45,849 nucleotides of DNA, filler included, from Jimgerdemannia flammicorona (GCA_003990765.1; 2 parts of 2 records of this genome joined end to end with filler, not necessarily neighbours in it), one strand, 5' to 3'; positions 9,570-43,964 are shown, counted from the first letter of the whole stretch. The notes: a model not told the origin generated them from the sequence alone. Made by a program: numbers and translations.

Positions 9570-11632
9570 TGTAAGAGGGTTGCTTTTTAGGGTAACCATT
9601 ACATAGTTCTGGAAGGGTTTTCTGGAGGTTCTGGATATTCTAGAAGACCATTTTCTTATGGTCAAGATCAATTTCGTATGGAGTACATCCTCTACGCTTA
9701 TTGATTTCAAGATCGGGTTGACGTCTCAACCAAAGTCCTTTCTCGGACTAGTTCTAGGTGTTCAGGATTTTCCATATTTCAGGAAGTTCAAGAAACTAAG
9801 ACCAGCTTAGTTGAATTGGTGTATCGCTGCAGACAATACCCAATTAGGAAATTTCGTGACGGGGTTAGGAGTGGGACCTAACAGAGAGCGGATTTACTTA
9901 AGAGTGGTTTGTGGGTTATGGAATAGATTTATTTGCTATTCATGATATTGCTATACTAGGAGTAGTTTGTGTGAAGGGATATTGTGGGGAAGTATTCAGG
10001 AATGTTCTTGTGTATTCGAGTCTGAGATTCTGAGGTCTGGGGGAGGGGGTATTTATACTAGTGAGAGGCTATCTGGACTATGCTAGATATGGATGTAGCA
10101 CTAAGTGCCTTGCTGAGTTGGAATGCAGTTACATAGTACAAGTGTGATCTGATATGTCAAGAGATCATCTGACTGCTGAGTCAGTTCACAGTTACATCAT
10201 ATGAGGCTAATCTAACTATACTATGACTGCTAGTCTATTTATGGGTTTAGGCACTGTCTGGGTAGTCTTCGATGACATCACTATCGATTGCATCATCTCT
10301 GATGAAGTAGTCATCTAGGAAGAGTGGTTTGCGGATTACTTCTCCTTGTTCGCTGAGGTAATAGTACATTGGAACTTCATCTCCGTCCTACAAGATAGCA
10401 CCATCTGTTTTGTATGCTAGATAAGGTGTTGGTGGGCGAAGGATGGGTGTATTGTCTTCGCTTTCATCAGATTCACTATCTGCGTACCTTCTATAGATTA
10501 CAGCACTATGAGTTGCGGGGTTGTAGTAAGCTGGCAGCTGTGGTTCATGTCGCTCATACTCAGGTGGTGGAGTGGTTGGTTCAATCTCGAGGGTTGTCTG
10601 GAGGTACAGGTTGTGTTCTCCGGTCTCTTCATTGTAGTTGAAGTAGTTGGGGGTGAACGCGGGTTGGTATTCGTGCCAGTGGTCATTGTTCCAATAAGTC
10701 TTGTATGCAGTTATGAACTGTTGTAAGTTCATTGGCAAGGTTGGCAGTGTGATCAGGGTTGGCAGAGATCCTTGGCTAGAGGTCATGTCGGCGTCAGAGG
10801 GATCATTGTCTTCTGCTTCATCTTCATTGAAGTAGATTATATCGTAGACATCCTTCATGGCGTATCCGACTTGAGGCATTTGCAGGATATGGTCACCAGG
10901 GTGCGGGAAGGTTCTATCTGTGGTCTGGACGTATTCGAGGTACTTGTGGTTGAGTTCTTGTATCATGTCATCGATTTGGCTATAGAACAGGGTAGCAATC
11001 ATTTCACTGATAGTGACTCAGAGGCAGGGAATAAAGGTGCTATACTCATAGAAGAGTTCTTGATGTTTGCGGGCGATGAGCTTCTGGTGTTGAGACATCT
11101 GGGTAATGTTTGTATCATGGTGGTGTTCAACCATGTCTTCCAGGAGGCAGCCAATCTGGTAGTAGCTTGAGATTTGTCCGATTTCGTGAGCCTTGCTAAG
11201 CATGTTCAGGGCATTCCATTGGGCTTCTATGAAGTAGAGGGGTGCCAGGCTATGGATATTCATGAGGGGTAGAGGGGGTGTGGCTCGGTTGACAATGGCA
11301 TTCCAAATGTCAGCGCGGATATGGTTATAGATCTCGGTGGTCATATTTGTGTATTTGAAAGTTGTAGTTGTTGTTTGTTTTGGTTCTCTGTTTTGATGCA
11401 TCTCAGTGCTCGATATATATGCATTTAGTCCTGATTGGTAAGATTCTGTTTGTGTAAATCTTGTATTCCGTGACTTCGTATTGACTCAGCTTTGTGTGCT
11501 GTGACTTCGGTTTGACTCAGCTTTGTGATCAAGCAGGTGATTTCCAGATTCATTTGGAGGTCATGTGAGATTTCAGTGGCTTGTTCAGAGGGTGACGTAT
11601 AATTTCGGTGGCTTAGAGGTTGTATGCTTACA
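9570..11632 (-). mobile_element. Solo LTR1 (2063 bp)
   Basis: TGTAAG...CTTACA termini with a perfect 5-bp TSD tggag (9565-9569, 11633-11637). The empty site is visible in hAT copy B (~22140). Minus-strand TATAAATA at 10050-10057 and AATAAA at 9928-9933. Confidence 0.92.
10388..11344 (-). pseudogene. LTR-encoded (U3) ORF, ~318 aa, one in-frame TGA
   Basis: ORFs 11018..11401 and 10388..11002 are in the same frame, separated only by TGA at 11018-11020. Homologous to the ORFs in LTR2 and LTR3. Confidence 0.8.
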
Positions 11633-12697
11633 TGGAGGAATATGTGCAGATTGTGCAAGAGGAGTGAAATGCAAGAGGAGTGGAATGTAGTGAGGAAAGC
11701 TTCAGATTATAAGTATAAGTATAAGTATAAGTACAAGCTTTGCTCTGCTCAGCTGATAGCTGATATCACATAATATCAGCTTATTATCAGCTTGTCAGAC
11801 TGAGTGGAGCAAAGCTTATACTTACACTTATACTTGCAATCTGGAGCTTTTCTCACTACATTCAACTCCTCTCTGTATAATTTAGCAGGTTCTACATAAG
11901 CCTTAATTGAGTGAGGTTTGTAACAATGTTTAAGCAAGGTTTATAGTACATTTGAGTAAGATTTGCAGTGAGATTTGCAGTAAGGTTCAAGTAAGATTTG
12001 CAAGTAAGATTAAAGTGAGATTTGTATAAGCCAGGCTTTATAAGCCTTGTACTTGTAAGCTCAGCTAATAGCTGATATCACAGATATCAGCTTATATACA
12101 TATTATATTAGCTTGTAACTAAGCTTGTTCAGGCTTGCAAGCACAAGGCTTGCAAAGCCTAGCTTATACAAATCTTGCTCAAACATTGCTTGCAAATATC
12201 ACTTTAATCTTGTTTGCAAATTATGCTTTAATCTTGCTTACAAATCTTACTCAAACATTATTACAAACCTCACTCAATCAGGGCTTATGTAGAATATGCT
12301 GAATCATATAGAACACACTGAATTATACAGAATATGCTGAATTTTCAAAGTATATTTACTGTTTACAGTTATGTAATAGGTACTAGTTCAACACCTATAT
12401 ATATTTATTCATCCATCCTTTGTCCATAATTGATCATTAGCTATTGCACCTTATACCACCACCTCACTGCTCTCTATCTCACTGCCCCCCAGCTCACTGA
12501 CTCTTGTTCCAGGCCCCACAGTTTCTGGCTTTCCCTACTGCTTGCCACTCCCCCCCAACTCTCTGCCCCCTAGTTCACTGCCCCCCCAGCTTGTTCTCCA
12601 GTTTGTCACTCCCTAGCTTGTCACTTCCTAGCCACTTTCCAGCTCTTGGCCTCCCACTCAAGCTCCCAGTCTCCACCATCATCAAATACTTTTTAAA

Positions 12698-14420
12698 ATA
12701 TCTAAAGATCAAGAAGTATATTTAGGAGAAATCTCAGAACTGTCAGATGATATATTAGAGGATATATTGGAGAATATATCAGATGATATATCAGATATCT
12801 CCACCAGTTCATTATCATTAATGAGTATAAGAATAAAAATAAAAACAAAACCTAGTGATAGCTGAGTGTAGAATCATACAACAAAGATAGTTTTATATAT
12901 TGTTCTAATGGTTGCATTCATAGGGGTGGTTGGTCTCATCAGTCATAAGGGTAGTCAGTTATAATGGTGGTCAGTTGTAAGTAGTTGAGGTTCTAATATA
13001 GTCTCATATCTCTCTATTTAAATAGAATTTACAAAGTAAGCTCATCAGTTGTAACCATTGCACAACTTGGAGCTATATATTAAAGGATGGCAATATCAAC
13101 AATCTTAAATGATATCTCTGGAAGTATTATAATGCTATACTCTTATCTCTCCAGCATGCTGATCTAAGAAAGATGATATTATGAGTATAGATAGAATAGA
13201 ATTCAGAAAGTACTTAGGAGGTTATTAGAAAAATAATTTATCAAATTTTATTATTACAAATAGGAATACACTAGCAAGACTTTAAGTGATGAAAAATTCT
13301 ATTGATTAATTGCCAACTTCATTGTCACTGGATATCAGCCATTTTCCACTATCAAAAATACTGGCTTCAAATATCTCCTTCACATATTATACTCTGATCT
13401 GGTCCTTCTATTGGCTGATATGATTTTTCAAATTATTTGAAAGAAATTTAAACTATTGTAGACTCAAGTAAAAGTAAGGCTAGCAGGGCTCAAGTTAAAG
13501 GTGTCACTTATACTTGATTGTTGGACATTAGATATTAATGTCAAGGCCTTTCTTGGAATAATAGTCCATTGGATTGATAGGAAATAACAGCCCATTGGAT
13601 TGATAGGAAATAACAGCCCATTGGATTGATAGGAAATAACAGCCCATTGGATTGATAGTGATTAGAAGATATATGATATTATCTTAGACTTTGTGAATAT
13701 TATCAAAATAATACACATGGGGGCCAATCTTGTGAAATGTCTAGAGCTGGTAATAGATGATTTATTGCCTAGTAACAATCAAATCATTGCTGTTGTATGT
13801 GACAATACCAGTAACAATAATACTCTGTTTGAGAATCTCTATCATCTGCTCACTCATATATACTGTTTTAGGTATACATATATTAAATCTCATTGTTCAT
13901 GATACTTTTGGTTCTCTTAGTGAGCCCATTGGAAAGCTACAGAAGTTAATAAAGAAGATCAAAAATTCAGCACAATGATAAGCACAACTGGCAAAGATCT
14001 TTAAATCCTCCAGAATTCCCATTTTGAAGCCTCTCTTAGATATTATGATGAGATAAAGTTCTATATATGAAATATTAGTACATGCTCTGGAGATTCATAA
14101 GGTAAGATTTTGAATCTATTTGTATAGATTTTGGAATATGATTCAGAAGTATTTTGGTACTAAATAAATTGATATTACATCCAAATAGGGCTTGGATATA
14201 TTGTGTACCATGGATAAGCAAATGAGCAATATATCTGAAGATGCATGGCAATAATTTGAATTAATTTGCCAATTTCTTGAGCCTTTTGCCAAAGTAATAA
14301 CCATGATGTTAGCTTCAAAGTATTCTACAATAACAGCTGTTATTCCACTATTTAATTAGCTATATGATCACTTTGAAGATATCATTAATATATATCAAAC
14401 TGGTGAATATTTTAATCAGG
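12698..14420 (+). pseudogene. hAT transposase, family 2 copy A (BED finger and DDE core, decayed)
   Basis: Start codon mutated to ATA. SCNHCTTW...NNLK, LILDCWT...AFLGIIVHWID, VVCDNTSNN. A 27-bp triplication lies at ~13565-13660. Confidence 0.9.
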
Positions 14421-15284
14421 TATATTGTGGCATTTGGTTTGTATCCCTAGTTGCTTCTGGCATGGCTCAATGTGCTACTTGGTGAAGCACACGATGTATA
14501 ACTGAAGGCATTAGTGATGTTCACGGGTTGATGGTCATGTGACAGGTCATTCAAAACATGCGATAATAGTAGGAGATCATTTGTTTGTTGGCTCAGGACA
14601 TCGATGGCTCAATTGTTTAGTAGAAAAGGGCATTTCCTGGTGGCGATTAACTTGGCGGCGATGGTCTTGAATTTATGTGGCGACAATGGGCTTGCTCTTT
14701 ATGTGGTCAATTAAAGCAGTCTGTGGTGCAGTAGGTCAGAAAAAACAGAGGTTGACAGCTCGCTCGTCCGTCTTGACTTGTTAACTTGAAAGGTTCCTGG
14801 CGGTCATTCAGGTCTTTGGCAGTGGGTTGGTCTTTGGCAGTCTAGTATCCTTTGGCTGGGTATCCTTGGGTTTCTGGGTCTTGAATCTCGAATAGCGGTG
14901 GTTTGAATGGTGGTCTGAATGCATGGCAGTCATAGTCTTGAATCCTTGGCTGGGTCTCTGGTCTCGAATGGTAGCAGTCGGGTAACATTTTCTTTCCATG
15001 GCAAGAGAAAATTCTTTAACTCAAACTTCCAAGCAATCCGTTGCTCTAGGTTGTTATCTTGTTCTCAGAATTTATCCGGTCTCTTGGAGGCAGTGTGTTT
15101 TCTCTGTAAAACTGTCTGACTGAGGCTTTATTCACTCTAAGAATATGGGTTATTTATACAAGTTTGCTAGCTATGGGGGGGGGGGCGTGACTAAGGCTAA
15201 GGTATACTACATTGTGGTGAACTTATGCTATTGGTTTGCATGATGCGAGGTGCAGGCTTTTGTTTACTACAGATTGGGTTGTAG

Positions 15285-15500
15285 GGGATAGCAACGCTGA
15301 ATTCGGATCTGCTGACAAAATGCTGAAAACGGTGGTACTGGGTAGCAATGCTGGATTCGGATGAGCTGATATGATACGATGATTGTTGCCAGAAATGGTT
15401 GTGGAGGGTGGCAATGCTGAATTCGGATCTGCTGACAAAAGTGCTGAAAATGGTGGTACTGGATAGCAATGCTGGAAACGGACTTGCTGACAAAAGCTGG
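15285..15500. repeat. Tandem enhancer-like repeats within LTR2 U3
   Basis: gcaa(c/t)gctg(a/g)attcggatctgctgacaaaa...ggtggtactgg repeated 3-4 times between the ORF stop and the TATA box. Confidence 0.75.
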
Positions 15501-15525
15501 GTTCTTACAGCTGATGGGCGGTACT

Positions 15526-16512
15526 CTAGAGGAAATAGTACCCTTCGTCCATGGCGGGCAAATCTTGCTGGGTTGTGATTTCTTCTTCATCATATCTCTC
15601 CTCAAAAGGGGGAAGCACTGGCCAAGAGGTGAGGGGGTAGAAAAGTGGCCAGTCATCTTCAACAACATTCTCCAACCCTTGAACAGCTTGAATATGGACA
15701 GAGGACTGGTAGACTCTCTGTTGCTCCTCCTCTTCTTCTGAAGACTCATCAGTTTCAGTGTCAGAGGGGGTTTCTTCAGGGGCAGGGCCTTGGAGTTCTT
15801 GGGCCTCCTCTTTAAAGACAGGAACTTCTTGGGCTTCTTCTTGATTTGGTTCCCAAATGATGAGGTGTGAATTGTGGCTGACAAGGTGGTGGGTGGTTGG
15901 GGTAGCTCCAATGGGTGCTTCTATGGTAATGGGCGGTCCTTCAAATATCTCCATAAGACTTATTAGGTGACCTTGATGGTTGTCTCGGAGTGGGGTGGTG
16001 TGGAAACCTGGCTGAGTAGGTTCGGTTTGTTGGCTTCCTACGGCGATGCAGTTGCTGCCAATAGTGTTGGCTACTTCAGATTCTATCCAGTCAGCATCTT
16101 CAGTTGAGAGGTGGGAGAGGCTGCCAGCTGTTACTCCTTGCAAGTGTGCTATAGCCCAGGGAATATGGCGGAAGATTTGATGGACATGGAGGGCTCTCTT
16201 GATTAGCCGGCTGGTGGTTAACATTTCGGCAATGAGGTCTTCCTGGTTGTCTTCTTGAGTCTCATTGTGAAGGCGGTGTCTGATTTCATAGTCATGCCAG
16301 AGGGTCATTCATTCAGTAGTATCTTTGAGCTGTTGGGTCATTATATACCAGTAGTTGATGAAGTGTCCAAGGTCCTCGGTGTAGAAGTTCAAGTGTTTGG
16401 AAGTGTCTGGGCACCAGATGGCCTTCTTGATAGCTTCAAAGATCAGGGTCTTTGGGCCAGGCAAAGGGGTAGAGCGGCAGGAGGTCTGGTTGGATCGGCG
16501 AATGGGAGGCAT
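15526..16512 (-). pseudogene. LTR-encoded (U3) ORF, ~328 aa, one in-frame TGA
   Basis: ORFs 16309..16587 and 15526..16308 abut in frame across a single TGA. Core reads WHDYEIRHRL...ALHVHQIFRHIPWAIAHL, with an acidic tail. Confidence 0.82.
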
Positions 16513-16719
16513 TGTGTGGTGGGTACTTGGTTCTTTGGTGCTGATCCCTGAGACAGAGTATGGTTCCTTAAATAATGTGGTCTTCATTTTGGCTCAGATT
16601 ATCTTGTCTTCTTTTGGGATGATCACCTAATGGGTCAGGCTGTCTATTTGATTGTCACGCCATTATGTTGTCTGATCTTAGCAGTCACTGGTACTCCGTT
16701 CTCAATTATGTACGTCACA

Positions 16720-17242
16720 ATATATTCTTAGTGCAATTTAGTATACTATATGAGATAAAGAGCTTGACTTTTTTTTTATATAGCTTAAGGACTTCTGTCT
16801 CCTATATATAAAAAGAAAGAATTTAACTGAATGCTGTCTGTTTTAGTAGATTTCTAAGCTAGAGCTCTCAGGGCTGGATGAAGGGTAGGTATTCTTTAGT
16901 ACTATCTAGCAATATGAGGTTCTGAGCCAAGAATTCACCCAATTATATACTCACATCACATTGGAGTACATTAGGTATAATATTTCTCTACCTATATATA
17001 TAGACAACAATATCACTCTAATAATATTTTATATTCCAAAAAGAAGAGACCCAACTTGGGAAGACAGTAGTAGTATCTGATATAATCTCATCTATAGTTT
17101 CAGGATCTTATTTATAGCCAACATGGCTATTCTATTCCAACCACATACCCTCTATGGCACTGTTACTTTTAAAGAGAGCTCAGATACTACAGTTGTCACA
17201 CTTATAATAGATAGTAATAGACTTATTAAGACCTGGGACTAG
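16720..17242 (+). pseudogene. Second copy of the TET/JBP-like gene (last intron and last exon)
   Basis: Inverted homolog of 2433-2970: QYEVLSQEFTQLYTHIT...PIYIDNN...FIANMAILFQPHTLYGTVTF...LIKTWD*. Confidence 0.75.
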
Positions 17243-18357
17243 CAGGTGGAGCAGTTTTATAAATAAGTACCTTTTATATAGATTAGATAGTCTTTTGTGA
17301 GAATTAGACAGTCTTTTGTAAGAGTTAGGTAACTGGGCACCTCTTTTGTTTTATAGTACTAGTTTTCAGCTTTTAGCTTTTTTCTGAGCTTTACTAACTC
17401 CTTGGCCCTGCTTTGTAGTACCACTGATACAGTACTATAGTATAGAGTAAGAGTACTCATACTCTAAATCTGTACTAAAGTCTGATCTATACTAGAGTCT
17501 GATTGCTTGATGTTGCTTTTCATAGTGAGTTGGTGGGCTGCAAATTCTGTGTACTCTCTCTGCTATATCCTATTCTTGGGGCTACTCCATACTGCTGACA
17601 GAGGGCTACAAATTTTGTATACTCCCTCTGCTGACCTGGTTGACCCCTACTCTGCTCCTTTTTTATTTTGCAGTACTAGTTTTTGCTTTTACTGAGTCCT
17701 ACTGGTCCCTTGGCCCTACTGGTCCCTTGGTTCTACTTTGTGGTACCACTAGTACAGTACTAGTATAGAGCCAGGGTGCCTATGAGATCCAAATCTATGC
17801 TAAAGTCTGACTACTTGAAGATATTTCTTACAGTAGATCATTGGGCTGCAAATTCTGCATACTCTCTCTAACCCAGACTTTTATACTAACTTATAGCTTA
17901 AGGTCATCCCTTGTTGCTAGCAGAGGGCTATAAATTTTATATACTCTCTCCACTGACCCTACTGACCTCCACTGATCCTCTACTAATCCCACCAACCTCC
18001 ACCCCACTTAGACTGGCAAGGGACCACAAATACTGATATACTCTCTTTACTGACCACTTTGTACCCTGAGCTGAACTTCCTCTTTTTTTTTTTTTCTTTA
18101 AATAATTTATAAAAAATAATTTATTTCTAACTCTTTTTTGTTTAAAACTACAGGACTTGCTCAATTTTAGCAGCCCATACCCCACCAAGACTTTAGACAC
18201 ATATAGGTCTAGATTGTCTCAGTATTCAGTATATATCTCTTTGAGAAAATGAGATCCACTCTGTTAGAGAACACCTACTTGACTGAAGCACTGGTGGTAG
18301 GAATAGCCAGAGAGTTCTAAGCCATACCATATAGGCTGGGGAAGTCTGTTTGATGTA
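17243..18357 (-). mobile_element. Second copy of hAT family 1: internal repeats and transposase 3' end
   Basis: 18162-18357 is the reverse complement of ~1240-1440 (HQTDFPSLYGMA...); same ~55-bp repeats and palindrome. Cut by the family-2 terminus at 18366. Confidence 0.85.
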
Positions 18358-18777
18358 TCTGTGACTAGTGCTCTGCAAACTCGACCCGATTAACCTGAAA
18401 CCTGACCTGTAAAACAGCCAACCCGGAATTAGACGTCACCCATCTTTAACCCAACCCGGAATTATATGTCACCTGTCTTTAACCTGACCCGGAATTATAT
18501 GTCACCCGTCTTTAACCTGACCCGGAATTATACGTCACCTGTCTTTAACCCGACCCAGAATTGTACATCACCCGTCTTTAACCTGACCTAGAAAGATACA
18601 TTACCCATCTTTAACCTGACCTGGAAATGTATGTCACCTGACCCATTATTTACCCTTAACCCAAACCTGAACCCGACCCCTGAACCCGACCCTGAACCTG
18701 ACCCCTGAACCCGACCCTGAACCCAACCCTCTGAACTCTGCTCTGAAAAAATGATTCGGAAAATATTTGGATAATAT

Positions 18778-22978: not shown

Positions 22979-23678
22979 TTTTTTTGGGCCCTTGTCATCT
23001 AGACCGTTTTCGGCCTTGGCTCGGTGACCACCGCAGAAGTAATAGGTGGATATTTAATTATGGAGCACAGTTTATTCGATATGGAATAAATTTTGATTGT
23101 TTTCTTGCAATTCGATTAGTAGTCGAGTGTTCCGATTGGTTTCGTTTCCGAATCCAAATGTCTGGATATTTAACAAGCGTAGCACAAATACGAAATCAAC
23201 TGGAGTATAAAATTGAGTAGGATACAAAATGAACTCGAATGCCAGAAACAAAACCGGGATAAACACCTCATTGGTTTTTGTCATCAACTCGTAACAATAT
23301 TTAATCCAGGGAACAAGCACCATATGAACAAATAATCGGATATACTAACTATATTAGATATTTTATTGAAAGAGATCTCTACCAGATACATATGTAAGAT
23401 ATGTCAGGCTAATAATATGTTATATTACAGATACATTCATTGGCCAAACCATCAATCATTTACCTGATACATTTATTTTCATATCTCTGGCTTAGGCGTC
23501 ACGAGGTACAATTATGCTGAACACAAAGAACAGGTTTACTTTCATTCTAAAATAAACTGTGCCACTCGCAATAAGGTGTGAAAACGATTTGTCTTGCTGC
23601 GTCATAGATCACGTGCTCGCCTCTACCTAACCATAAAGACGTAAAACCAGCCACCTGTTTTCCGGCCAAGCTACAAAC

Positions 23679-25225: not shown

Positions 25226-25262
<37 letters not shown>

Positions 25263-26179: not shown

Positions 26180-26211
<32 letters not shown>

Positions 26212-28644: not shown

Positions 28645-28703
<59 letters not shown>

Positions 28704-28707
28704 GTTT

Positions 28708-28756
<49 letters not shown>

Positions 28757-29831: not shown

Positions 29832-30425
29832 TTAAAACATTCCAAGCTCAAACTGCCTTCGACCCCTGCTACTGAGGAGGGTCGAACTTTTTGTCGGATG
29901 CCTGAGGCTCGCGATCGAGAGGGGACTGGCCCTGAGAAGGAGAAGAGTAAAGCGAGGAAGGTTCGCTGGTTTGCAGGTCGTGTGGGTTGCGGACCGGGAG
30001 GAGGTGCGGGTTGGTGGTGTGAATGTGTGTTTGTAGCTTGCGTGAGGATGTGGAACAGAGTACAACAGATTCCCTTTCCTTACACATGCAGATCGAGGAC
30101 TCGCAACGCCATCTCGCACCCGCGGAGAAGGCGATGGGTCTTCGTTGACCAAAACGGGATTTCTGTCCTGGTATGCTGGGTCTTTCGGATTGCCGCGTTG
30201 GTCGATGATTACAATGGGTTTCGAGCGGTTGATGCGATGATCGATAATAACGGCGCTGTTGCCGTTGCGCTCCCCGCGGAAGAAGATCACGGGCGGGTCG
30301 CCCAGCGGCGCCAACTCGCGGTTGACCAGGATTATGGGGGCAGGGCGCAGGTGGTGGATGTTGACGGCAAGCACAGGCGGGCTGTCATAGCCATCGAAGG
30401 TGTCTGACTCTGAAACGGCGGCCAT
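29832..30425 (-). CDS. Hypothetical protein with repeated P-x-hydrophobic stretches (3' part may be spliced)
   Basis: ATG-initiated, CpG-rich island like the neighbouring host genes; PVLAVN, PIILVN, PVIFFR, AVIIDHR, PIVIIDQR, PVLVNE. Confidence 0.5.
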   Translation of the reverse strand: MAAVSESDTFDGYDSPPVLAVNIHHLRPAPIILVNRELAPLGDPPVIFFRGERNGNSAVIIDHRINRSKPIVIIDQRGNPKDPAYQDRNPVLVNEDPSPSPRVRDGVASPRSACVRKGNLLYSVPHPHASYKHTFTPPTRTSSRSATHTTCKPANLPRFTLLLLRASPLSIASLRHPTKSSTLLSSRGRRQFELGMF

Positions 30426-30887
30426 TCGTGTTGTGGGTGGGGGGAATGGGTTACACGTTAAATAGTTTTGTTATGCAGTAGCGGTGGTGCGGTCATTGTT
30501 AACTCACCCTCCACCCTAGAGATTCATAAAAGCAGCAACAATTGATTGTCTTATTCATGCTGCAGCATTTCATCTTGTTTTTGTTTTGATCAAACCCTTT
30601 GCTTAGATTAATCCTGTATTAAATTTACTCAGAGCCGTTAACAATACTAATATATAATGCATTTATTGCGCAAAATGGGTGGGAGAAACTACTTTTTTAA
30701 CTATTTAATAATTTCCATTTTGTTATTTTGTAAACTATTTTCTGCTCTTATAGCTTGACAACGCTAATGCGATAAAACCCCCGACTATACAAAACTTTTA
30801 ATACGAGAACCATGTAATTATAATCCGCCCGCGAAATTCAAATACATCGCTCACTCACGCGTGCACAACGCGATCGTAATCACCCAT

Positions 30888-31536
30888 CTACTGGATGATG
30901 ATACTCCTACCCCCGGTAGCCTCGGTCTTGGGCACGCGAACCTCGAGGACGCCCTGGTCGAATTTTGCTTGGGTGTCGTCGGCCTTGATGTTTTGCGGTA
31001 GGGGGATGGTGCGGGAGAAGGCACCGTAGCGACGTTCACGAACGCGGGCGCTACCTTGGTTGTAGTCTTGGTTCTCCTCGTGGTTGCCGGAGATGATGAG
31101 TTGTTGTTCGCGGATGTCGAGCTTCACCTTATCCTTGGGGACACCCTGTTGAGAGAGAAGAAAGTATGAGGAGAGAGTCCAGAGCAACGCAAAGAAACTA
31201 TTCTTTGATAATAAATCTCGCAAACATAGGCAATAGACTGCGTACCGGTAATTCGGCATGGATGACCAGATCTTTGTCGGTCTCAGTTACATCGATAGAA
31301 GGAGCCCAACCACTAGCCGTGGCGCCACGACCGAAGATACTGCGAGGAGTGGCATTGAGGTCTTGGAAGAAGGCTGCATGTAACGGACGGGGAGACCGAG
31401 GATAAAACGTGAGTGATGTTAAACAATTATATGTGTTTCCGGATGCAAATACTTGAGTGAAAAACTAACCATCGAAGATGTTGTTGACGCCGCGCTCAAG
31501 GCGGCGGAAGTCAGGATCATAACCAATGATGGACAT
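30888..31536 (-). CDS. Small heat-shock protein (HSP20/alpha-crystallin), 3 exons
   Basis: MSIIGYDPDFRRLERGVNNIFD / AFF...WAPSIDVTETDKDLVIHAELP / GVPKDKVKLD...RERRYGAFSRTIPLP...AKFDQGVLEVRVPK. Confidence 0.96.
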
Positions 31537-31629
31537 GTTTGACGTGTAAGCGGTGGGGCAGAGAGTTGTTTTAAGATGGGTTTGCGTTCAATGCTTGCTG
31601 GGTGCTGGTTGAGAAGGCAAGGCGTCTGG

Positions 31630-31765
31630 TGATTTATATATCTACGCTGCGTCAATGCCACATAGGCTTGGACTTTCGAGGGCTCCGATCTGCAGAAATG
31701 GCGTGATCTGCTTCTTGCCAAACGCCAGATTTTTTCTCGATATGTATATATTTCTCGGAACTCTA
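31630..31765 (-). promoter_or_regulatory. HSP20 promoter: TATA box and possible heat-shock elements
   Basis: Minus-strand TATATAAAT ~100 bp upstream of the ATG; imperfect TTC..GAA units at ~31730-31762. Confidence 0.5.
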
Positions 31766-33353
31766 TGCCATTACGTATGTGCCTCATCACTCTGACGTCA
31801 TGGAGACGTCTGCAATTTATTTAATTATAAAAAACTGTTAAATTCATATCCCTTAGATCGTTTAATATTAAATTTGAACGAAATATAATGTTAATTATGA
31901 ATTTATAAATATATATATTCATAAAAAATCGAAAAAGAAATTTTATTAAGTAACTTAAATATAAAAAAATTATCAAGAATATACATATATAATAGCATAC
32001 AAATTTATATGTTGTGCTAATGATCTAGGGGATATATTACATAAAAAATTAAAATATATTTTATAACAAAACTGGATATCTATTATAATAAGAATAATAG
32101 TAATAAATAAGATTAAAAAGTTCGGAGTTTGGTACTGTAATAATGTTATAGTAAAGTATATAAATATAAATATTAAAAGTGACTGATGAAAAGCCAGAGC
32201 AAATAAAATGTACAAAAAACATTACGAAAGCCGATATAAATAATTGAGACCTACCCTAGTGTGGGTATTTGTGCTGCCAATCTTCATGAAGATATATTGA
32301 TTGTCCAATACGCCCCTTCATTCGCTGGGTGCCACATATCTAGGTTGCGCTCCAAGGCTCACAGTCAATTCATTCAAATTATATCTCGATGCATACGCGC
32401 CGTTTGGCGAATATTCACGACAAACCGGAAAAATAACTTGCCGTGATGAAAAGTTACAATATGCAGCCAGCCGAAAATTGGGTAATGGCGAAATGATATC
32501 TCACGATTCATACTCATACGCAGATCTGCATACAAAAGATGATTGAGGGGCCAAAAGTGATAATCCTCCTAGTAGGCTGTAGGCTGGTTTCTTCATCTTT
32601 CGTGAAAACTCAAATGCACTTTTAGTCTGTAGGTAGCGCTGCTATCCAATGATCTTAACGAACGAAGGAGAGACCACACATTTTCTATTTGTAAGAGTCC
32701 AAATAATTATACCACAACCCCCACAAACCCCCAAATGCAAAACCAAACACACCTCGCAGGTTTAATTGGTTTGGACATTGACGGTGGTGTCGAGTTGTTC
32801 CTTCAAAATCTTGATACTAAAGGCATACACACTCCGAGTCATAAGAGAAATTCGATCCGCCTTTCGACGAGCGCTGGCAATGCCGTCAGAGAGCTGAACG
32901 ACCTCCCTCCATAAGGCTATTATCTCCTCGGCGGTCGTCAGTTATGTGGTGGCCAACCACCTCCATGACCACGTCATTATTGTCCTCGGCTGTCGAGGAT
33001 TATGTGCCCAACCCGTTTTAGAAGAGGTGGCTCATGACTCATAATTAGTAAATTGATACCAATTTTCTATTTTGGATTTTGCCATTATGCTGCTCCATCA
33101 TGCAGAATCCATTAACCATTAATTAACTTTCGATCGAGATTCGCCTTCTTCATGGTTGGTGTTTTGTTTCGCAGTAGCTCTTATGTTTTTTTTTGTATAT
33201 TTATTCGCTCGTTTTATTATACAAGCAAATTTTGCATCGTTGAGAACATACTTTCATATGCGGAGAATCTTTTAAGTAACGGGGTTTGAATGATAAAAAA
33301 TAAGACTGTCAGGGATTCACTGCGATATTCGATGTTGATGCAATTTTTCGAAG

Positions 33354-34882
33354 TCATGCTCCGAACTTCACAGCTTCCTCACCACCCGCTTCTGCGCGCT
33401 TCAACGTATCGGCATGATCAAGGAGTAACAAACATGCTGGATAACCCACAAATTCTTTGATGATATCCTCTTCCAAACGCTGAACGTCGCCGCCGCCGCC
33501 ACTCTGAATGTTTAACCGGGACTGGACTTCCTCCGGAAATACGACCTCAACTAGAGGCCTAAGATATTCAATAAACGACATCCCCATGCGATTGAATTCC
33601 AAGCGAGGATCCCACCGGGTAGAGATGAGCCGTCCGTTTCAATGTTTCCATTGCCAGCTCCATATTCCCCTCCCCGTTGATACCCTCAATGGTGAATATG
33701 CGACAAAATTGGTTTCCGCGATTTACCATACGTCTCAAAATGCTGTTCACCTCAACAAGCTCTTTTTTATGTCCGGAAAATGTCGACGTGGAAAAGATTG
33801 ACTCGAGAATGTTGGGGAGAATGTAGAGTTTGACCGTAGACTTGCCCTCTTTGCACTTGAACGCGGACAAGTAGAGTACCATGCCTCCAGGGATTGCCGC
33901 ACGTCGTCGTGATCCTGGAGGGATACGCGTGCCCTCCACATCGCCATTTCGACTGTGACCGGTGAGGAACTGGTATAATTTGGACTCGAACTCGCGCGCG
34001 AGATCGTCTGGCAAGCAGTTGGAACCGATAGTGTATGGGACGCCGTTCTCGTAAAGGGTTCGGGCAACATCGAAGGCGAGCTGCATGTTTTGAAACATGC
34101 TGGCAAGGCGTAAAATATCAATTAATTCGTGTTTTCTATTCTCGTTATGAGGGCTTTTGCATTGTCCTTCTTCCCAGTGTCCCACGAAATGAAGCACTAT
34201 GGTCTCGGAATTGTTAATAAGTAACGCGTACATTTGATCGACGGTTGGCGGGAACGCGCGCTCCAATATTACCTTTTTGTTGTTGGTGTAGTAGCTGTTG
34301 ATAAAGTTCTGGAACTGATCGCGCAAATGCAAGTCGGGAAGATTCGCATCGGAATCATTTAAGATGATGGGATCCGGTACAATGGCGACAATGTGTGGCA
34401 GAAGTTTCGGTAGCTGAAGCTCCCTCCGTTGGTGCACTCGTGCAAAAATGCACATGTATTCCCAAGGGATGATGTCGAGGTCGCCGTCGCCGTTGAGCTC
34501 GGGCAGGACCCGACCTTGAGCTGGGGTATTTCCTTTAGCCGCTGCCGAGCGAGGCTGGATTTTTTTTGGCGCTAAACAATGTCTTGGCATACTTTCTGAG
34601 GTACCCTTTTGGAGAAGACGTCGATTGCGATAGGTCGACCGTTTTGGCATTCTCTCAGGTCAAAGGAGTGACAGTCAACTCTTTCGGACTGGGTATCGCT
34701 GCAGACGGATACGCGGACGTAGGCTCTGATCTGGCTCTCGTTGTTGCGCTTGGTGTACTTTGACAAAGATAATTGCATGTATGATGAAGGTAGGTGATCT
34801 TTGGTGGCAATTTTGAAAGTCTCGGTGCGGATACCTGTGGTAAATCGCGTTCTACTAGCATTCTATCCCACCCCACCATCAT
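33354..34882 (-). pseudogene. CHAT (caspase-like) domain fused to NB-ARC/STAND P-loop; NLR-like, frameshifted
   Basis: CHAT: GDGDLDIIPWEYM, IVLHFVGHW, GVPYTIG...DDLAREFESKLY. NTPase: FSGHKKEL, RIFTIEGINGEGNMELA (decayed Walker A) and LLLLDHAD (Walker B, after a frameshift). Confidence 0.75.
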
Positions 34883-35418: not shown

Positions 35419-35775
<357 letters not shown>

Positions 35776-36630
35776 TCTTACCCATCTAGCCCATCTTGCC
35801 TACCTATGTTGCTTGTGTTGCTATCTTGCCATCTTGTCCATCTTGCCCATCTTACCTGTCTTGCCCATCTTGCCTGCCTATGTTGCCCATGTTGCCTGTG
35901 TTGCCCATATTGCCTATATTGCCCACCTGTATTGTCTGTGTTGCCCATCTTGCCCATCTTGCCCATCTTGCCTGTATTGCCCATCTTATCCATCTTACTC
36001 ATCTTACCCATCTTGCCCATCTTGCCTGCCCATATTGCCTATGTTACCCATATTGCCTATATTGCCCATGTTGCCCATGTTATCTGTTTTATCTGTTTTG
36101 CCTGTTTTGCCCATCTTGCCCATATTGTCTGTCTTGCTGTCTGCCCATCTTGTCCATATCACCCTTCTTACTATCTTATCTGTCTTGCCCATCTTGCCCA
36201 CCCATGTTGCCTATATTGCCTGTGTTGCCCATGTTGTCTATATTGCCTGTATTGCCCATGTTGTCTGTTTTGCCTGTGTTGCCTGCCTGTATTACCCATA
36301 TTGCCCATATTGCCCACCTATGTTGCCTGTGTTACCTGTGTTGCCTATATTGTCCACCTATGTTGCCTGTGTTGCCCATGTTGCCCATTTTGCCCATTTT
36401 GCCCATTTTGCCCATTTTGCCCATCTTGCCCATGTCACCTGTCTTGCTGTCTGCCCATCTTGTCATCTTGCCATCTTGCCCATCTTACCCATCTTGCCTA
36501 TCTTGCCTGCCTGTATTGCCCATGTTGCCTGTGTTGCCAATGTTGCCTATATTGCCTGTGCTGCCCATATTGCCCATATTGCCCATATTGTCCACATTGC
36601 CCATATTGCCCATGTTGCCCATGTTGCCTG
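35776..36630. repeat. 9-bp-unit minisatellite (ttgcccatN / ttgcctgtN), ~850 bp
   Basis: Directly visible tandem units. Confidence 0.95.
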
Positions 36631-36897
36631 TGGACTACCAAACTATTGTGACCAGTAAGGTAGCAGAGAAAGGGGCATCAAACTTCTTATCTTTAACTGT
36701 CTTGTTATCTCTTAGATTGCTTGTAAGGAAGTGTGTATAAGTAAACTTAACTGACTTTATTTCAGAGGAAATAAGATGGATATTTATACAAAATATAATT
36801 CAATGGTTATTAAGATATAAAGTTAAATATAAATTCCAATAACTAAAATAAAATGCCAGGACAGGAAAAATTACTAAGTTTCAGAGTCGGCACTGAT

Positions 36898-36943
<46 letters not shown>

Positions 36944-36989
36944 GTCACTTGGACTCTTCCTTTATTATACCCATCTATCTCATATAATT

Positions 36990-39900
36990 ACAGTGAACCA
37001 ACCCCCTATGCAATCCCCCTAGGGGGGCCCCCCACCCCTACCCCTTCTCGACAAAAGACTACTTTGTCAAATACAATCTCCATCCTCCCACCACTCTGTT
37101 CACAGATCCTTGCTACCAAACCTCAATGTCGCCTCACTGAAGGACCCCCAACCTATCCACCATCCAGTCATCAGATCCCCCAACAGCTCCTCCCACCTTA
37201 AAACCTTCTCCTGCAGTCCTATCTGCCATCTCTCCTCAAATACAAAAAGCCAATGACCTGTCAATCTCACCCAAACTGCTAACACCCACCTGACAGTGAG
37301 CCAACTATCACCCACCCCCCTCACTAGCTGAGATCTCAATTCTTCCCAGCAGTTCCCCTCACCTGCCAGTATTTGCTCCACACCCAGTCTATTCCCTATT
37401 TCTATCCAAAAGTCTCCCAAAACCTCACACTCTACCAGCCAATGTTCCAGCATCTGCACAAAACCCCCAGCTTGCCCTACATTGTAACACTCCTCACAAT
37501 CGAAACAGCCACCATCCACCAGATGCCCAGTGCAGAAATTTAGTATGACATTTCTCTGCAGTATTCGCCACCACACCACCCAAAACTTGGGAGGAAGCCA
37601 TTGCTATACCTCAGTACTCCAAGACCAGATACCTGCCCAGTCCCACTCCTCGCCAATCCCTACCACCTGCCAACTGCTCTGCCAAAGATCCCAGCCAAGA
37701 CTCTGCTGACACTCCACTCTATCCCCAATATCAAAATCAGCAAGTGGGGCACCCCCCAGGAGCAGTCTATCCCATCGCCACATACTAGGTCCCCACAACA
37801 CCTCCCCCTCATTGCCTTGTCAGTGCAGACCAATTCTGTGTGCTCTATCGACCACTCCCCACCAAAAGCCCCTAAACCACAGCCACCAATTTCCATTGAG
37901 CCCTACCAAAGAGAGTAGATCTCCTGAGAACCCTTCGGGGGAGGTTCTCATCTTCCACACCTTCTGCAGCAGAGGCACCCAATCCCCTCCTTGCAGTTCA
38001 GCTGCCCTCTTCAACCACCAGGCTCACAAGCAGTACAACCTCTTAGGGAAATCTATAAGGCCAAGACCTCCCCTGACCACCAGTGTCACAAGAGTATCCC
38101 AACTGATCTGGAACCTCCTCCCTGTCCAAATCCAATCCCTAGCCACCTTCATCAGCCTCTCCACTACCCAAGCTGGGAAGTTTAGGTGGTAGGCCACATA
38201 CCACAGCTTGGGGAATCAGTATACATTCAGAATTGACACCTGCCCTACTAGAGAGATATGGCAGCCTCCCCAACCTCAAAGGACCTCCCCCCAAATAGCC
38301 ACCCTGCTCTCCCACCACACTCGTGGCAAGACAGAGCCATATACAGAGAGGAAGATGCCCAGATACTGTACCACCTCAACAGTAGGGACAATTGTTCCAA
38401 TGACATCCCCACCCATCAGCCCATTCCCTAGCACTATAGTCACACACTTATGCCAGTTGAGCTTTGCCCCAGAGTGATCCTCATACCATTCCACTGTCTC
38501 CTTAAGTGCCTCGACATCTGCCACAGACCCAAGTCCAACCACCATATCATCCACAAAGGCTCCCACCTTCCACACTATTCCATAAATAGAGAGCTCTACC
38601 ACTTTCCAGTGAATCCTATCCATCAATGGTTCTAATGAAAGGGCATAAAGCATAGGGGACAGGGGGTCCCCCTGAGGAACTCCTCTTCTCAAGATAAATG
38701 CCAGACCACAGTGACCATTACACATCAGTGCTGCCCGACTGCCTTCTAGCAGATTCAACATAGAAGCCCAAAATCCTGGGGGAACACCAATACGATCCCA
38801 CACCTTGCTCAGCCAAACCTACTGGACCTGGTCATAGGCCTTCTTCTGGTCCAAGAAGACCAATCTTCCATCCAGTCCACAAGCCCAGGCCCCTTCAATG
38901 ACACCATGCACTCATGCAGTCCCATCTCTTATAAGTCTGCCTCCAACAAAGCCCCACTGCTCCTCCCCAAGCACCTGTTGGGCAACCTTCTGCAGCATTG
39001 CAACAACCACCTTAGTTACCATCTTTCTGTCCATATCCAGAAGCATGATCAGTTACCAGTTCTTCAAGTCTTTCCTCCTCCCCTTATCTTTGTACAATAA
39101 AGCCACCAGCCCAAGGTCCTGCTCTCCAAATCACTCACCACTCAGAAGAACATGGTCACAGAGAGCAGTCATCTCACCCAAAATGCTGGAGACCTTTATC
39201 ATCTTCTTCCAGAAGTCCCACAGTAATCTATCCTCTCCTAGTGCTGTTCCAGGTTTCATTGCTGCAAGGACACTCTGGACCTCCTTGCCTTGCACCGGCA
39301 AGGCCAAGTCACCCAGTCCAGCCACTTGTAGTGGCCTCCATTCTCCTAATGTATCTTCAATAGCTGCCTCATCAGCACCCCCTTCTTTCTCACTCCACAA
39401 ACCCTGCCATCTCTCTTTCAAAACCCTTAAGATTTGTTGTATGTCATGTACCAGGTCCCCATTGGCATCTAGGACTCCATCCCACTGATGTCACACCCTC
39501 CTAGCTTTAAGCAGACATGATAAATATCTAGTAGACCACACATCCTCCTCAAGCCCCTGCCACCTTAGCCAAGCAGCCATACCTTGCATATGCATCTCCT
39601 CCTCTTCTCTCAACACCTGTTACAGTTCCATTATCTCCAATTTAACCCATGCTAACCTCCAATCCTCCACCCCATCAGAAGTAAGCAAATCTGCCCAATC
39701 TATTTGCAATCTCCCCAACCTGTTGGAAGCACACCCCCTGCACTTCCTCCTCTGTCTCCCAGCTTCTCTCCCAGCCCCTCCCCAATAGACCTTCGCAGCC
39801 TCTTTCAATCTCATCCAACGGACACCCACTGACAAACCCTCACACCTCCAGCAAGAAACTTTTGCCTGAATGTCCTCCACCCACAAATCCCACAACTCCT

Positions 39901-40667
39901 TCTCAGCCAGCAGAGAGGAGTTAAGATGCCAATGTCCAGGTCCATCTCCACTCCCCCCAAACTGCCCCTGTCCCAACAGTCCCCAGTGATCAGATTATGG
40001 GCACCACTCTACCTCCAATGCCTTCCAAACATTGGACCCCCAGCATTCTGCCATCAGAATCCAGTCAATCCTTGTACCTAAGCCATTCACCCAATGCATG
40101 TAGACCCTAGTGTTGCCCCATCATGTTCTGCCTATATCTCCTGAGAAGCTCAGCCACTCCACCTCCTCCCATACATCCAGACCTCCACTTCTCCCTCCTG
40201 CACTCATCCCACCATCAGTTCTGTACAGATGCTGATCCCAAACCATATTAAAGTCCCCCCCCAAGTACATCAACCCCTTCCTCTAAGAGAATACCCTCCT
40301 CCAGCAGCTCCTTAATCCATGTAATCCTCTCACCCCCAACTGCAGGGCAGTAGCAAGAGCCAACCCTCACCAACTCCCACCCTGGCCGATGCCAATCTCC
40401 CCAGACCAAGCGATCACCCCAGCTCCCAATACCCCCCAAGTCTTCTCTACCCTTTCTCACTAGAATCACCACTTTTCCAAACCAAGCAGTAGCCCCACCC
40501 CATTCCTTAGTCCACTCTACCTGATCATCCTCGTCCTCACACTGAACATTCTGCAGTAAAAAGAGATCAGCCTCCAATCCCTTGAGCCAAGTAAAAATGT
40601 TCTTATGCCACCCAGATCCCCTTAGCCCATTTACATTCAAAGAGAAAATGTTGGTTGTACTGTTCAT
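36990..40667 (-). pseudogene. LINE ORF2: APE endonuclease, reverse transcriptase, C-terminal Cys region
   Basis: IFSLNVNGLRG, WHLNSSLL, LVFLDQKKAYDQV, RRGVPQGDPLSPMLY, AFVDDM, QYLGI; several frameshifts and stops. Confidence 0.95.
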
Positions 40668-40697
40668 AAGAAAAATGTTGTATTGTGATCCCACCTT

Positions 40698-42734
40698 CTA
40701 CAATTCCACATCCCACTCCTCCTGCAATAAATCTAAGTCATGTTTAGCAGCTAGTTCCCTTTCACCAGCTTTCTGTACCTCCAACCCTCTCAGAAGTTCT
40801 ACCATCACCCCATCTTCTCACTCCTCGAAGTCCTCATGATATTCCAGACAGGCCTCCTGCCAGAGCCACAAACCATGCCACTCTGCCCAACAGTATGCTG
40901 CCTGCTCACCAGCAACCACTGCCAACTTGGCCTTCCTCACCTCATCATCCTCATATCCCTCCTCCTTCAGGAAAATCGAAAGAATCTCCCCCTTCAGTAT
41001 CTCCACCACCCCCTTGTCATGCAAAATCTGTGCCCAATGCTCCTTAGGCATAACCCACAGGTCCACTTCCCCCAAAGTCTCAGCTGTGAGGTTATCCATC
41101 ATCTTACTCATCCACAGCAAGTTCCACACCTCCTTCCCTCCTGGAGTCCCTGGCCATCCTATGACTAGCATCATGGTATCAGCCCCTACACTGGTAGCCT
41201 CATCCCACTCCTCCTCCAGGACATCCACCGGCTCATCCTTGCCAATCACCACCACCTGACCCCCTTTTTCCACATCAGGGACCCCAAAGTGCACTTGCTG
41301 GGCCCCCTTTATTGGTATATTCTCTGTTGTCCATCTCTTCCCAGCTGGGTCCCTCTTGATAAGAGGGGGGGGGATAGCATCCAGCTCCTGCTCCCAGACC
41401 TCAAAAATTCCATCAGTATAGAGGTCCTTGCTCAGCATCTTCTCAGCTTCTTCCTTGCCTGCCTCCACCTCCCCAACCACTTTACTTGCCCAAATACTAG
41501 CTTCAATGCCACCAGATATTTCAGCTCCAACTGTCTTCTTTGTTGCCTCTACTTTCATACTCACCAGTAGCTCTCGCTGCCTCCTATGCCCCTGTGCCAG
41601 CTCCCACTGCTTCCTGTCAGTGCGGACGTGCTTTCCATCTATAACCTCCAGATGCATTGACTCCTCATACATCTTCCAGGCCCTTGCCCTCCTCTCTACA
41701 GCTCTACTCAACTTCTCCAGCACCTCCAACAAGTCCTCCTCCTCCTCCTCACTCCCCTTCACCCTTGATACCTTACAGATGAATGCCCCCCACATCAGTA
41801 CAGAAGGCCAGTCACTTGTCTTCCCCATGGCCTCCTTGCCCACCAGCCGAATCCTGACATCAATGTTGCCTATTCTGATCATTGTCCCCTCCCACACCTG
41901 AAAGCTGATGTCCACCATATCACCATACCCAATCATCACCTCCTCCACCCTCCTCCTAGTCTCCTCCTTAGTCACCATGGGCACCCCCCTCACCAGAAGC
42001 TACATCACCCTGGGGTCCCATCGCAAGCACTGCACCATGGGGACCACCACCTCCCTAACTACAACTCCAGTCTTCAGTGCGTCGTCTAGTGGGCCTGCCT
42101 CCTCAAAGCCCACCTCGACCCCCTCCAGATTCTTCAAGAACTTCACTGAGGCTGCCCCAGCCACCTGCTTTAAAATAAGCCCCAGAACCATCCTCGCCAT
42201 CACCACCAAGCCATGGAAGCACAAGGTCGCCATGAACTCCAAAATTGACTTCTTGAGCAATGGGGCCACTGCCAGTCCCATTATACCATCCATCAGGTCC
42301 CCCTTCCTCATCGGGAACCCCTGTCCCCCCTGACCATCAGCTCTCACATCTCTTTTTTTTTCCTTCTGATTCACCATCACACCACCATCAGCAGTCCCAC
42401 CACTACCCCCAGCAGCTACTCCACCTCCACCACTTCCTACTGCTGAAGTCCCAGCTCCCCTAGCACTTCCAACCATCTTCTTCCCCTTCCCTCCTGTCTG
42501 TCCACTGTGATCTCCAACTGGCCAACCTCCTGACCTCAGTGTATCTACAAAGCTCCTCCTCTGCTGCCCTCCAGCCCCCCCACCAGTATCACTTCCACTA
42601 TCCAAGCTGTCCTGCTCACCTGGGTCACCAAAAGACCTCATCCCCAGTCCATACCCTCTCCTGACATGCTGTCAGTTAAAGGTCCCAGGTCCACCTGACC
42701 TAGTACACATGTCAGCTTGCTTGCTGGTTGACAT
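40698..42734 (-). pseudogene. LINE ORF1 (Gly-rich N-terminus, RRM-like region)
   Basis: ATG at 42734 is in frame with ORFs 42000..42641 and 40818..41993, upstream of ORF2. Confidence 0.8.
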
Positions 42735-42911
42735 TGTCTTAATATCTTTCTTCAATAAATGACTTGAAAGTGTGTTATAAAAGTGTGTGTAACATGAATT
42801 ATAGCAGAGAAAGATGGGTCAGCACTGATGTTTGTACAGGTTCAGGATGCTGGTATAATTCAGTGTTATATTAAAATGCCAGTGCTGGTATTATCTAGTA
42901 TAACAAGAAAC

Positions 42912-43713
42912 TTAGAGCAGAAAGTTCAGGACTATCAGGGCTTCATCCTCATCATCAGAGGTCAGGATATCTTCAAGGGAGATGAGGTCCATGAATTCAT
43001 CTTCATGCATTTTATGTGCTTTGATGATGCATGGGATGACATCATTGTTGATGATATCATCATGTTTGGTGGTGGGCTCTCTAATCTATGAGGTTCTCTT
43101 CTACAAAATAAGAGACAAATGTGGGTTCTTGGGGAGGTCTAACCTGGATGCTCAGGCCTTAGAATACTGAGATCAATCCTTGCAGGAATTGGTCTGGATT
43201 GTCCTGAAGGATTGAATGCCAGAAGTCTTCTACTTTATCACTATTGAGAGTGATAGTGGACTGGGCTTCTGTAGCCACTCTGGCTTCTAGTGCATTGATA
43301 CAGCAGAATGACAGGTCTCTGAAATCTGAGACTCAAACATACTCCAAGTTGGGGATTGATCATGGTGTATGTCTGAAGATCTGATAGATCTTCTTAGCTG
43401 TCCTCATTTTGCATATATCCATGGGAGTGGTATCTTGTAGCTCTTGAGTGCTGTTCTGTGGGAACTTCTGGTAGAGGAGATTTCCTATTTCATACTCCTG
43501 CCACATTTAGAGGCATTCAGTAGCAATAGTGATCCTTGTTTCCATTTCATGGTAGTAGAGGATATTGTGATAAGGGTCATCAGTACCGAGGTTGATACTA
43601 GGAGTCTTTCTTGAGCAGGTCCTCATGGCTCTTCTGATGTCTTGGAACATCCTTTCTTTGACTGAGATGCCTTGGTGGTTCCTTGACCATGAGGTTTGGC
43701 AAGTAGCAGGCAT
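42912..43713 (-). pseudogene. LTR-encoded (U3) ORF in the Gypsy 3' LTR, decayed
   Basis: MPATCQTS...MFQDIRRAM...ATECL*MWQEYEIGNLL...AKKIYQIFRHTP*SIPNLEYV*VSDFRDLS...LEARVA with an acidic tail; aligns with the LTR2 ORF. Confidence 0.8.
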
Positions 43714-43954
43714 TTTATTTATGGTAAGTCTTTGAGCTATTTTGGGATTGATGGGTCTTGTTGATTGCTGCTACTGTAGTTCCTTGATCCTTCTTTTATA
43801 TTTCTCAAGATACCATACTGTGGACACAATGACTCACAGTTGGTCATTATTGCTCATCTCATATGCCATATAATCTACTTGTACTTCCATCTGGTGACTT
43901 GTAAGAAAAGGCTGTCTCCTGTGCTAATGTCATCATTCTGGAGTCACTGTTACA

Positions 43955-43964
43955 TCTTTCTCCT
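43955..43964 (-). other. Polypurine tract
   Basis: AGGAGAAAGA directly before TGTAAC on the minus strand. Confidence 0.75.

Follow-up and report, generated by a model that had tools for sequence, protein, structure and literature searches.

Three long terminal repeats with an internal open reading frame

The stretch of DNA analysed here, hereafter the window, comprises 45,849 nucleotides of Jimgerdemannia flammicorona (GCA_003990765.1; two parts joined end to end with filler) and contains three long terminal repeats (LTR1, LTR2 and LTR3), each harboring the remnant of an open reading frame (ORF; p1, p2 and p3, respectively). The minus strand of the window is taken as the sense strand of these elements, since the Gypsy integrase beside LTR3 also lies on it. 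An original prediction had placed a conserved protein family inside the U3 region (the part of an LTR upstream of the transcription start) of three divergent Gypsy LTRs. Indeed, in each of the three a sense ORF lies between the 5' end of the LTR and a TATA-like word, on the minus strand of the window, and the little DNA similarity expected among the LTRs was borne out, with no mutual match at E ≤ 1e-3.

LTR1 is a 2063-bp solo LTR (9570..11632, minus strand) with TG..CA termini that form 6-bp inverted ends (TGTAAG..CTTACA), flanked by the 5-bp target-site duplication TGGAG at 9565-9569 and 11633-11637, all read from the sequence. Metagenome contigs of four soil or other runs (X1-X4) were aligned to 9400-16900 at 80% likeness; 24 of 299 loose contig ends were examined, and one contig stands behind each edge junction. 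Inside LTR1, X1 had a mean word depth of approximately 800-2800, against at most 14 beyond the high edge (past 11658), with sharp depth edges at both boundaries, 9570 and 11632. Moreover, an empty-site joint from 9564 to 11633, which skips 2068 letters with TG..CA ends and 5 shared letters, was found in three of the four runs (X1, X3 and X4), each time in a single contig. LTR1 is a discrete high-copy insertion. A single X4 contig runs from the LTR1-type edge 11632 into a 12-nt purine run, and a single X3 contig, among the loose ends listed, passes from the LTR1-type edge 9570 through 3 nt into TGGTAGCAG, which presumably resembles an initiator-tRNA primer-binding site. Together, these two junctions suggest that LTR1-type copies serve as both 3' and 5' LTRs, oriented as the ORF.

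The p1 remnant (10249..11344, read 11344->10249 on the minus strand) has 365 codons and an acidic tail. A single internal TGA had been claimed for each of the LTR1 and LTR2 ORFs; this was correct for LTR2, but p1 carries a TAG (10388-10390), at which its relative P0008 reads through, in addition to the TGA (11018-11020). The TATA-like 9-mer of LTR1 (10050..10058, minus strand) lies about 190 nt downstream of p1, with AATAAA about 110 nt further. As a separate observation, the word TGAGTCA, which we take to be of AP-1/Gcn4 type, occurs twice in a 31-nt tandem before p1 (11482-11519, minus strand) and once before p3 (43830-43836, minus strand); 3 of its 10 occurrences in the window are in these two short stretches, and window-wide it is not enriched (10 found, 8.0 expected).

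LTR2 is a 2294-bp solo LTR (14426..16719, minus strand) with TGTGGC..GTCACA ends and the 4-bp word ATAT on both sides, the flanks matching in these 4 bp only, in AT-rich DNA. A 330-nt contig of X2 departs from the window exactly at 16719 into the purine-rich, polypurine-like AAGGGGCAGA (single contig). The p2 remnant (15526..16512 including the terminal stop; coding 16512->15529, minus strand) has 328 codons and one internal stop, the TGA at 16309-16311, where three intact relatives of 324-331 aa that are 77-80% identical to p2 (P0001, P0003 and P0007) have Arg. Downstream of the p2 stop and ahead of the TATA-like word are two direct repeats of about 94 nt that are 86% alike (15277..15490, minus strand). 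The TATA-like 9-mer (15151-15159) and AATAAAG of LTR2 form a module at 15127..15175 (minus strand), delimited by contig matches and the shared word. LTR1- and LTR2-type units are mobile LTR-type insertions, and each of these solo LTRs carries an ORF remnant, as had been anticipated for solo copies.

LTR3 adjoins the 3' part of a decayed Gypsy pol (44267..45683, minus strand), recognized from the ORF list and Pfam as the end of RNase H plus the integrase; its Gypsy-type integrase zinc finger (Integrase_H2C2) was detected with E 2.9e-17 at 45188-45412 (minus strand). In agreement with the original prediction, LTR3 starts (TGTAAC at 43954) right behind a polypurine tract, AGGAGAAAGA (43955..43964, minus strand), about 300 bp past the end of the integrase frame. 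Its first part (42818..43954, minus strand) extends to the insertion point of a long interspersed nuclear element (LINE; 36901..42817, minus strand) with endonuclease, reverse transcriptase and a 40-nt poly-A (36901-36940), the insertion being framed by a 15-nt target duplication with one mismatch (42818-42832 and 36886-36900). The second part (36647..36885, minus strand) contains a TATA-like 9-mer at 36781-36789 plus AATAAAG, and the LTR tentatively ends with ..GTCACA at 36647. The p3 remnant (42912..43650, read 43650->42912 on the minus strand) has several stops and at least one frameshift, and its intact counterpart is P0009, a protein of 247 aa.

The LINE inside LTR3 is itself near full-length, with a Gly-rich ORF1 in addition to the two enzymatic domains. 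Related LINE 3' ends are located at 1-289 (72% alike) and 45684-45849, the latter truncating the Gypsy pol on its upstream side. Directly past the proposed end of LTR3, an array of 9-bp units spans about 850 bp (35800-36640, minus strand), followed by about 280 bp and then a poly-A run of about 100 nt (35420-35520), possibly a retroposed insert. A TGGTAG six bases past the proposed end of LTR3 had suggested a second element in tandem, and this candidate was set aside, with the array and the poly-A-tailed insert following instead.

Besides the ORF, the LTRs share a downstream module. Each LTR holds one copy of the TATA-like 9-mer, downstream of the ORF and on the minus strand; these are its only three occurrences in the window (0.52 expected), a number reached in 2 of 100 shuffles. 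About 20 nt beyond it, LTR2 and LTR3 have an AATAAAG, the look-alike module of LTR3 being at 36740-36800, and the 49-nt block of LTR2 (15127-15175) was matched by contigs in all four runs, which diverge on either side of it. The TATA-like/AATAAA block, which stops 140-730 nt short of the LTR end, is consistent with a core promoter whose poly-A signal immediately precedes the start site; on this reading the ORF would be located in U3. With regard to membership as Gypsy LTRs, TG..CA termini with a short inverted repeat were found (tentatively at the end of LTR3), a target-site duplication with an empty site was found for LTR1 (the 5' end of the LTR3 element falls beyond the window), and a pol with the integrase last and a polypurine tract before the LTR was found for LTR3 in the window and, for the LTR1 and LTR2 types, in one metagenome contig each.

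The encoded protein family and its predicted fold

The LTR2 and LTR3 ORFs clearly represent one protein family, judging from the p2-p3 comparison (49 of 181 positions identical; BLASTP E 1e-17), a pairwise similarity far beyond chance. For p1 a shallow profile gave a match at E 0.17, in the register originally proposed, and a 17-sequence profile (A2) compared with p1 plus P0008 gave an hhalign E of 5.9e-4 with a probability of 29% over 122 collinear N-terminal columns. The real score of this link, 29.4, was reached by none of 200 column shuffles (highest 22.3) and compares with 13.8 for the reversed profile. Consequently, the claim that the three proteins align stood for p2 and p3, and p1 is probably a distant family member on the evidence of these profiles. 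Among the shared motifs that had been proposed, the second and third were reproduced, but the register of the first differed between two profile alignments. P0008 is 65% identical to p1, covering its C-terminal 64% only, and is the sole match of the C-terminal 250 residues. When p1, p2, p3 and eight database relatives were used as tblastn queries, the three loci alone were hit in the window.

An exhaustive profile search retrieved 12 representatives at E ≤ 0.001 among 1.84 billion, P0009 being one of them. Since the longest has 342 aa, no pol-fused form was seen in this set. Intact relatives (247-342 aa), which were compared as protein sequences, come from metagenome-type collections only, on contigs of 659-19,434 bp; their ORFs are 20-57% identical to each other, with the N-terminal ~190 residues conserved and the tails divergent. 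An intact member of 291 codons was also found, with the relative P0011 as query, on a 1535-bp metagenome contig (L001). On this contig an imperfect direct repeat of about 35 nt (168-205 and 1478-1513) flanks the ORF, possibly an enhancer repeat or an assembly effect. A scan of metagenome contigs with alignment A1 yielded 131 pattern matches, of which none was confirmed, viral contig scans (with A1, P0009, P0008 and the integrase piece) yielded no matches, and the ESM Atlas offered no usable match.

The copies in the window are dead, as they carry stops and a frameshift. At the stop sites intact relatives have Arg, Gln or Trp, and thus the stops fit decay by transitions at CpG. Termination-reinitiation or an intron at the stop-ATG shared by p2 and p3 was considered and rejected: relatives read Arg-Met or Gln-Met there, which identifies these as decay stops.

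No described gag, env or accessory family was matched, as the original prediction would have it. None of the 6 window segments and 17 family members submitted to Pfam reached the curated cut-off of any family, a PDB sequence profile search gave no match at E ≤ 10, and Foldseek searches with the family models found nothing at E ≤ 0.001 in PDB or in the viral library BFVD. The full P0009 model is mediocre (pLDDT, the per-residue model confidence, 63.7; tail below 50). The core domain, modeled from L001:439-840 with 15 relatives (16 sequences), reached pLDDT 93.9 and pTM, the global model score, 0.85, with seven helices. Intact members are accordingly modeled as an all-helical N-terminal domain of about 130 residues, a confident fold, followed by a disordered, strongly acidic tail. 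Acidic tails had been predicted, and in all ten sequences examined the net charge over the last 80 residues is -10 to -20.

With regard to fold relatives, the best Z of an exhaustive structure aligner was 4.3-4.9, the tool advising caution below 8. Of the 48,161 chains compared, the 50 best-ranked rows include six with helix-turn-helix (HTH) domains of the ParB family (SopB twice, VirB, P1 ParB, KorB and Spo0J); these matches cover model residues 50-134, with 75-79 aligned at Z 2.8-3.8 and a root-mean-square deviation of 3.4-4.5 (VIA-align), below the same caution level. SopB and VirB were also matched by the full-length model, and two DUF3102 proteins of the viral library gave weak Foldseek matches (E 0.68 and 0.80). 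At E ≤ 1, hmmscan listed the ParB, KorB and DUF3102 families for none of the 17 members. We therefore describe the likeness of residues 50-134 to the ParB/SopB/VirB/KorB HTH as a resemblance in fold and not as membership. Furthermore, unlike ParB, the family shows no sequence match and no N-terminal CTP-binding domain, and the charge of its domain is about neutral. The helical domain plus acidic tail proposed originally were thus both seen, in the model and in the charge, but the ParB-like resemblance is weak. A helical, possibly DNA-binding domain joined to an acidic tail could fit a transactivator-like regulator, an assignment that we put forward tentatively and with low confidence.

A proposed accessory gene inside the LTR and its alternatives

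We consider it likely that a gene lies inside the LTR. The fuller reading, which we favor with moderate confidence, is that of a Ty3/Gypsy-type lineage whose LTR encloses an entire gene for an accessory protein, the transposons of the host being CpG-depleted. The ORF would stand in the sense orientation of the element between the LTR 5' end and the conserved TATA-like/AATAAA module, and its location in U3 would provide each 5', 3' or solo LTR with a copy. A small promoter within the initial 150-290 bp of the LTR might drive expression, together with the LTR poly-A signal; alternatively, a subgenomic RNA of the 3' end, produced by splicing, might serve as the message. The product might then regulate the element, its helical domain most likely binding DNA or a host factor and its acidic tail being of activation type or facing chromatin. 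A bolder version, which we hold to be unlikely, makes the LTR a complete gene that brings its enhancer, promoter and poly-A signal along with the ORF, so that any 5', 3' or solo LTR could serve as a unit of expression. The product would be an HTH regulator that recognizes a specific sequence and has an acidic tail of activation type; in trans it would activate the LTRs of the family or shield them from the CpG-methylation silencing of this genome, and the solo LTRs, in their hundreds, would amount to a scattered family of regulator genes that amplifies itself.

Several findings weigh against an accessory gene in Gypsy LTRs. Within the window there is no full-length element with the ORF in both LTRs, and the junction evidence consists of single metagenome contigs at 80% likeness, from 24 of 299 loose ends. 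Depth in X1 is 95-300 across 14922-16678 of LTR2 and 3-26 across 14420-14921, and this low depth over the low-coordinate ~500 bp leaves the edge at 14426 less certain. The comparison of p1 with p2 and with p3 by BLASTP was not significant (best E 0.68 and 0.49, respectively), and the 20 well-supported differences within p1 fall on codon positions 1, 2 and 3 in the proportion 6/7/7, although an absence of coding bias is what decay private to the window copy would produce. LTR1, LTR2, LTR3 and L001 each have another TATA-like element, 55-130 nt ahead of the ATG. As for a regulatory product, the ParB-type match, at Z 2.8-3.8, is below the caution level, and the helical domain is about neutral rather than basic. 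It is also conceivable, although very improbable, that LTR1 and LTR2 are not Gypsy LTRs but another short TG..CA mobile element, or belong to another superfamily, with LTR3 alone linked to Gypsy. Neither is attached to gag-pol in the window, and neither resembles LTR3 in DNA, as this explanation would have it; yet the 5-bp target-site duplication, the 6-bp inverted ends and the junction contigs resembling purine tracts and a primer site speak for LTRs, and p2 is homologous to the ORF of an LTR that stands behind a Gypsy integrase.

The TATA-like element upstream of the ORF bears on the placement in U3, because the ORF may own a promoter or sit in a long R region, the part of the LTR repeated at both ends of the RNA. 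The predicted U3 location accordingly agrees with an ORF upstream of the TATA-like/AATAAA block and is qualified by this upstream element, which allows R. Were the R (or R-U5) region very long and the ORF a part of it, still within the LTR, the ORF would be the first cistron of every LTR-initiated RNA, with the promoter at the TATA-like element just upstream and the downstream block acting as a bipartite poly-A signal. The TGAGTCA words, twice before p1 and once before p3, would suit this arrangement, as would the kilobase R regions proposed for rice Retrosat2 (PMC3485330). We judge it unlikely nonetheless, given that the downstream 9-mer with AATAAAG is the most conserved piece of the LTR, shared by LTR2 and LTR3 and matched in four of four runs, that it stands as far from the LTR end (140-730 nt) as a conventional core promoter would, and that TGAGTCA is not enriched in the window. 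The family link of p1 invites another doubt, namely that the LTR1 ORF is unrelated to the LTR2/LTR3 family and that two different acidic-tail proteins of separate origin came to occupy equivalent positions in the LTR. This appears rather doubtful to us: the failure of BLASTP, the hhalign probability of 29% and the C-terminal 250 residues matching P0008 alone would follow from it, but about 120 N-terminal columns are collinear at E 5.9e-4, above 200 of 200 shuffles, and LTR1 agrees with the others in position, orientation, TATA-like word and purine-tract style. Finally, the ORF might be a passenger without a role, either a captured host gene fragment or a once-coding, drifting relic, as the breakage of all three window copies and the lack of a third-position excess among the p1 differences might indicate. 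Such an origin is improbable in view of intact ORFs of 247-342 codons persisting at just 20-57% identity, an N-terminal domain conserved while the tails diverge, the high confidence of its modeled fold, and the lack of any non-LTR or host-like longer homologue among the 1.84 billion representatives.

Genes located in, or overlapping, the U3 of the 3' LTR are known from retroviruses, namely sag of mouse mammary tumor virus, nef of human and simian immunodeficiency viruses, and bel/bet of foamy viruses. An accessory gene inside Gypsy LTRs would share with them a sense accessory ORF in U3 that is duplicated with the LTR and dispensable for reverse transcription itself. No sequence or fold homology to Sag, Nef, Bel or Bet was found in the Pfam, PDB and Foldseek searches (PDB and BFVD at E ≤ 0.001). 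In contrast to the retroviral cases, the element here is a retrotransposon without env, the LTR contains the ORF over its full length, and the ORF is present in solo LTRs as well. The layout is known from a few retroviruses and is not standard in retrotransposons, and the protein family is previously unnamed.

Extra ORFs of LTR retrotransposons offer a second comparison; Cer1 of C. elegans, for instance, reportedly has an additional ORF, CERV. The positions described for such ORFs are the interval from the LTR to gag and the one from pol to the 3' LTR; in the main text of a review on the additional ORFs (aORFs) of plants, none of five phrases for a location inside, or an overlap with, an LTR occurs (PMC7264820). 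ORF0 of rice Retrosat2/RIRE is upstream of gag-pol according to its description (PMC3485330), and a figure legend in a fungal survey names an 'additional ORF' that is not placed in the LTR there (PMC2864245). Like the window family, aORFs, ORF0 and CERV encode additional proteins of Gypsy-type elements that evolve fast, are confined to particular lineages and have a regulatory or unknown function; aORF/ORF0-type ORFs are outside the LTR, whereas those of the window are inside it. No ORF wholly inside a Gypsy LTR was found in the full-text literature searched, the coverage of which is incomplete.

LTRs are usually treated as non-coding control regions and masked by annotation pipelines. If the accessory-gene reading is true, the sag/nef/bel layout would be extended to Gypsy retrotransposons, solo LTRs, commonly counted as dead remnants, could still encode protein, and a protein family without known relatives would join the short list of retrotransposon accessory factors. 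In a host with strongly CpG-depleted transposons, a gene in the LTR would also be a testable handle on how an element copes with methylation-based silencing. Moreover, repeat-masking ahead of gene calling hides such genes, and all the relatives come from unmasked metagenome gene calls.

Genomic setting and decay of the window

The window is a transposon-rich eukaryotic stretch, as established by a Pfam scan of its 86 stop-to-stop ORFs, which detected a hAT fragment (1120-1428), the endonuclease and reverse transcriptase of the LINE (about 37100-42700, minus strand), the integrase zinc finger described above and three host-like genes, for a DUF952 protein (23637), a methyltransferase (25471) and HSP20 (30891). 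The transposons have a CpG observed/expected ratio of 0.01-0.53 and the block of host genes (23000-32000) one of 1.15, and no TpA excess accompanies the depletion. This combination points to transposon-targeted cytosine methylation followed by deamination and not to repeat-induced point mutation of the ascomycete type. Furthermore, the window differs from related metagenome contigs of X1 by 589 transitions and 46 other changes, which, together with the CpG depletion, indicates that the transposons are decaying by C-to-T changes at CpG. Window sequence is present as a small share in each of six sequencing runs, and no RNA run is among those listed.

Two features were noted in passing. A frame of 363 codons (33571-34659, minus strand) is open between the repeats and the HSP20 gene, with no match in the Pfam scan of window ORFs. 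A 33-bp tandem repeat (62-81% alike) forms two arrays (7565-7946 and 18355-18703), one on either side of the region with LTR1 and LTR2 and 10.6 kb from each other.

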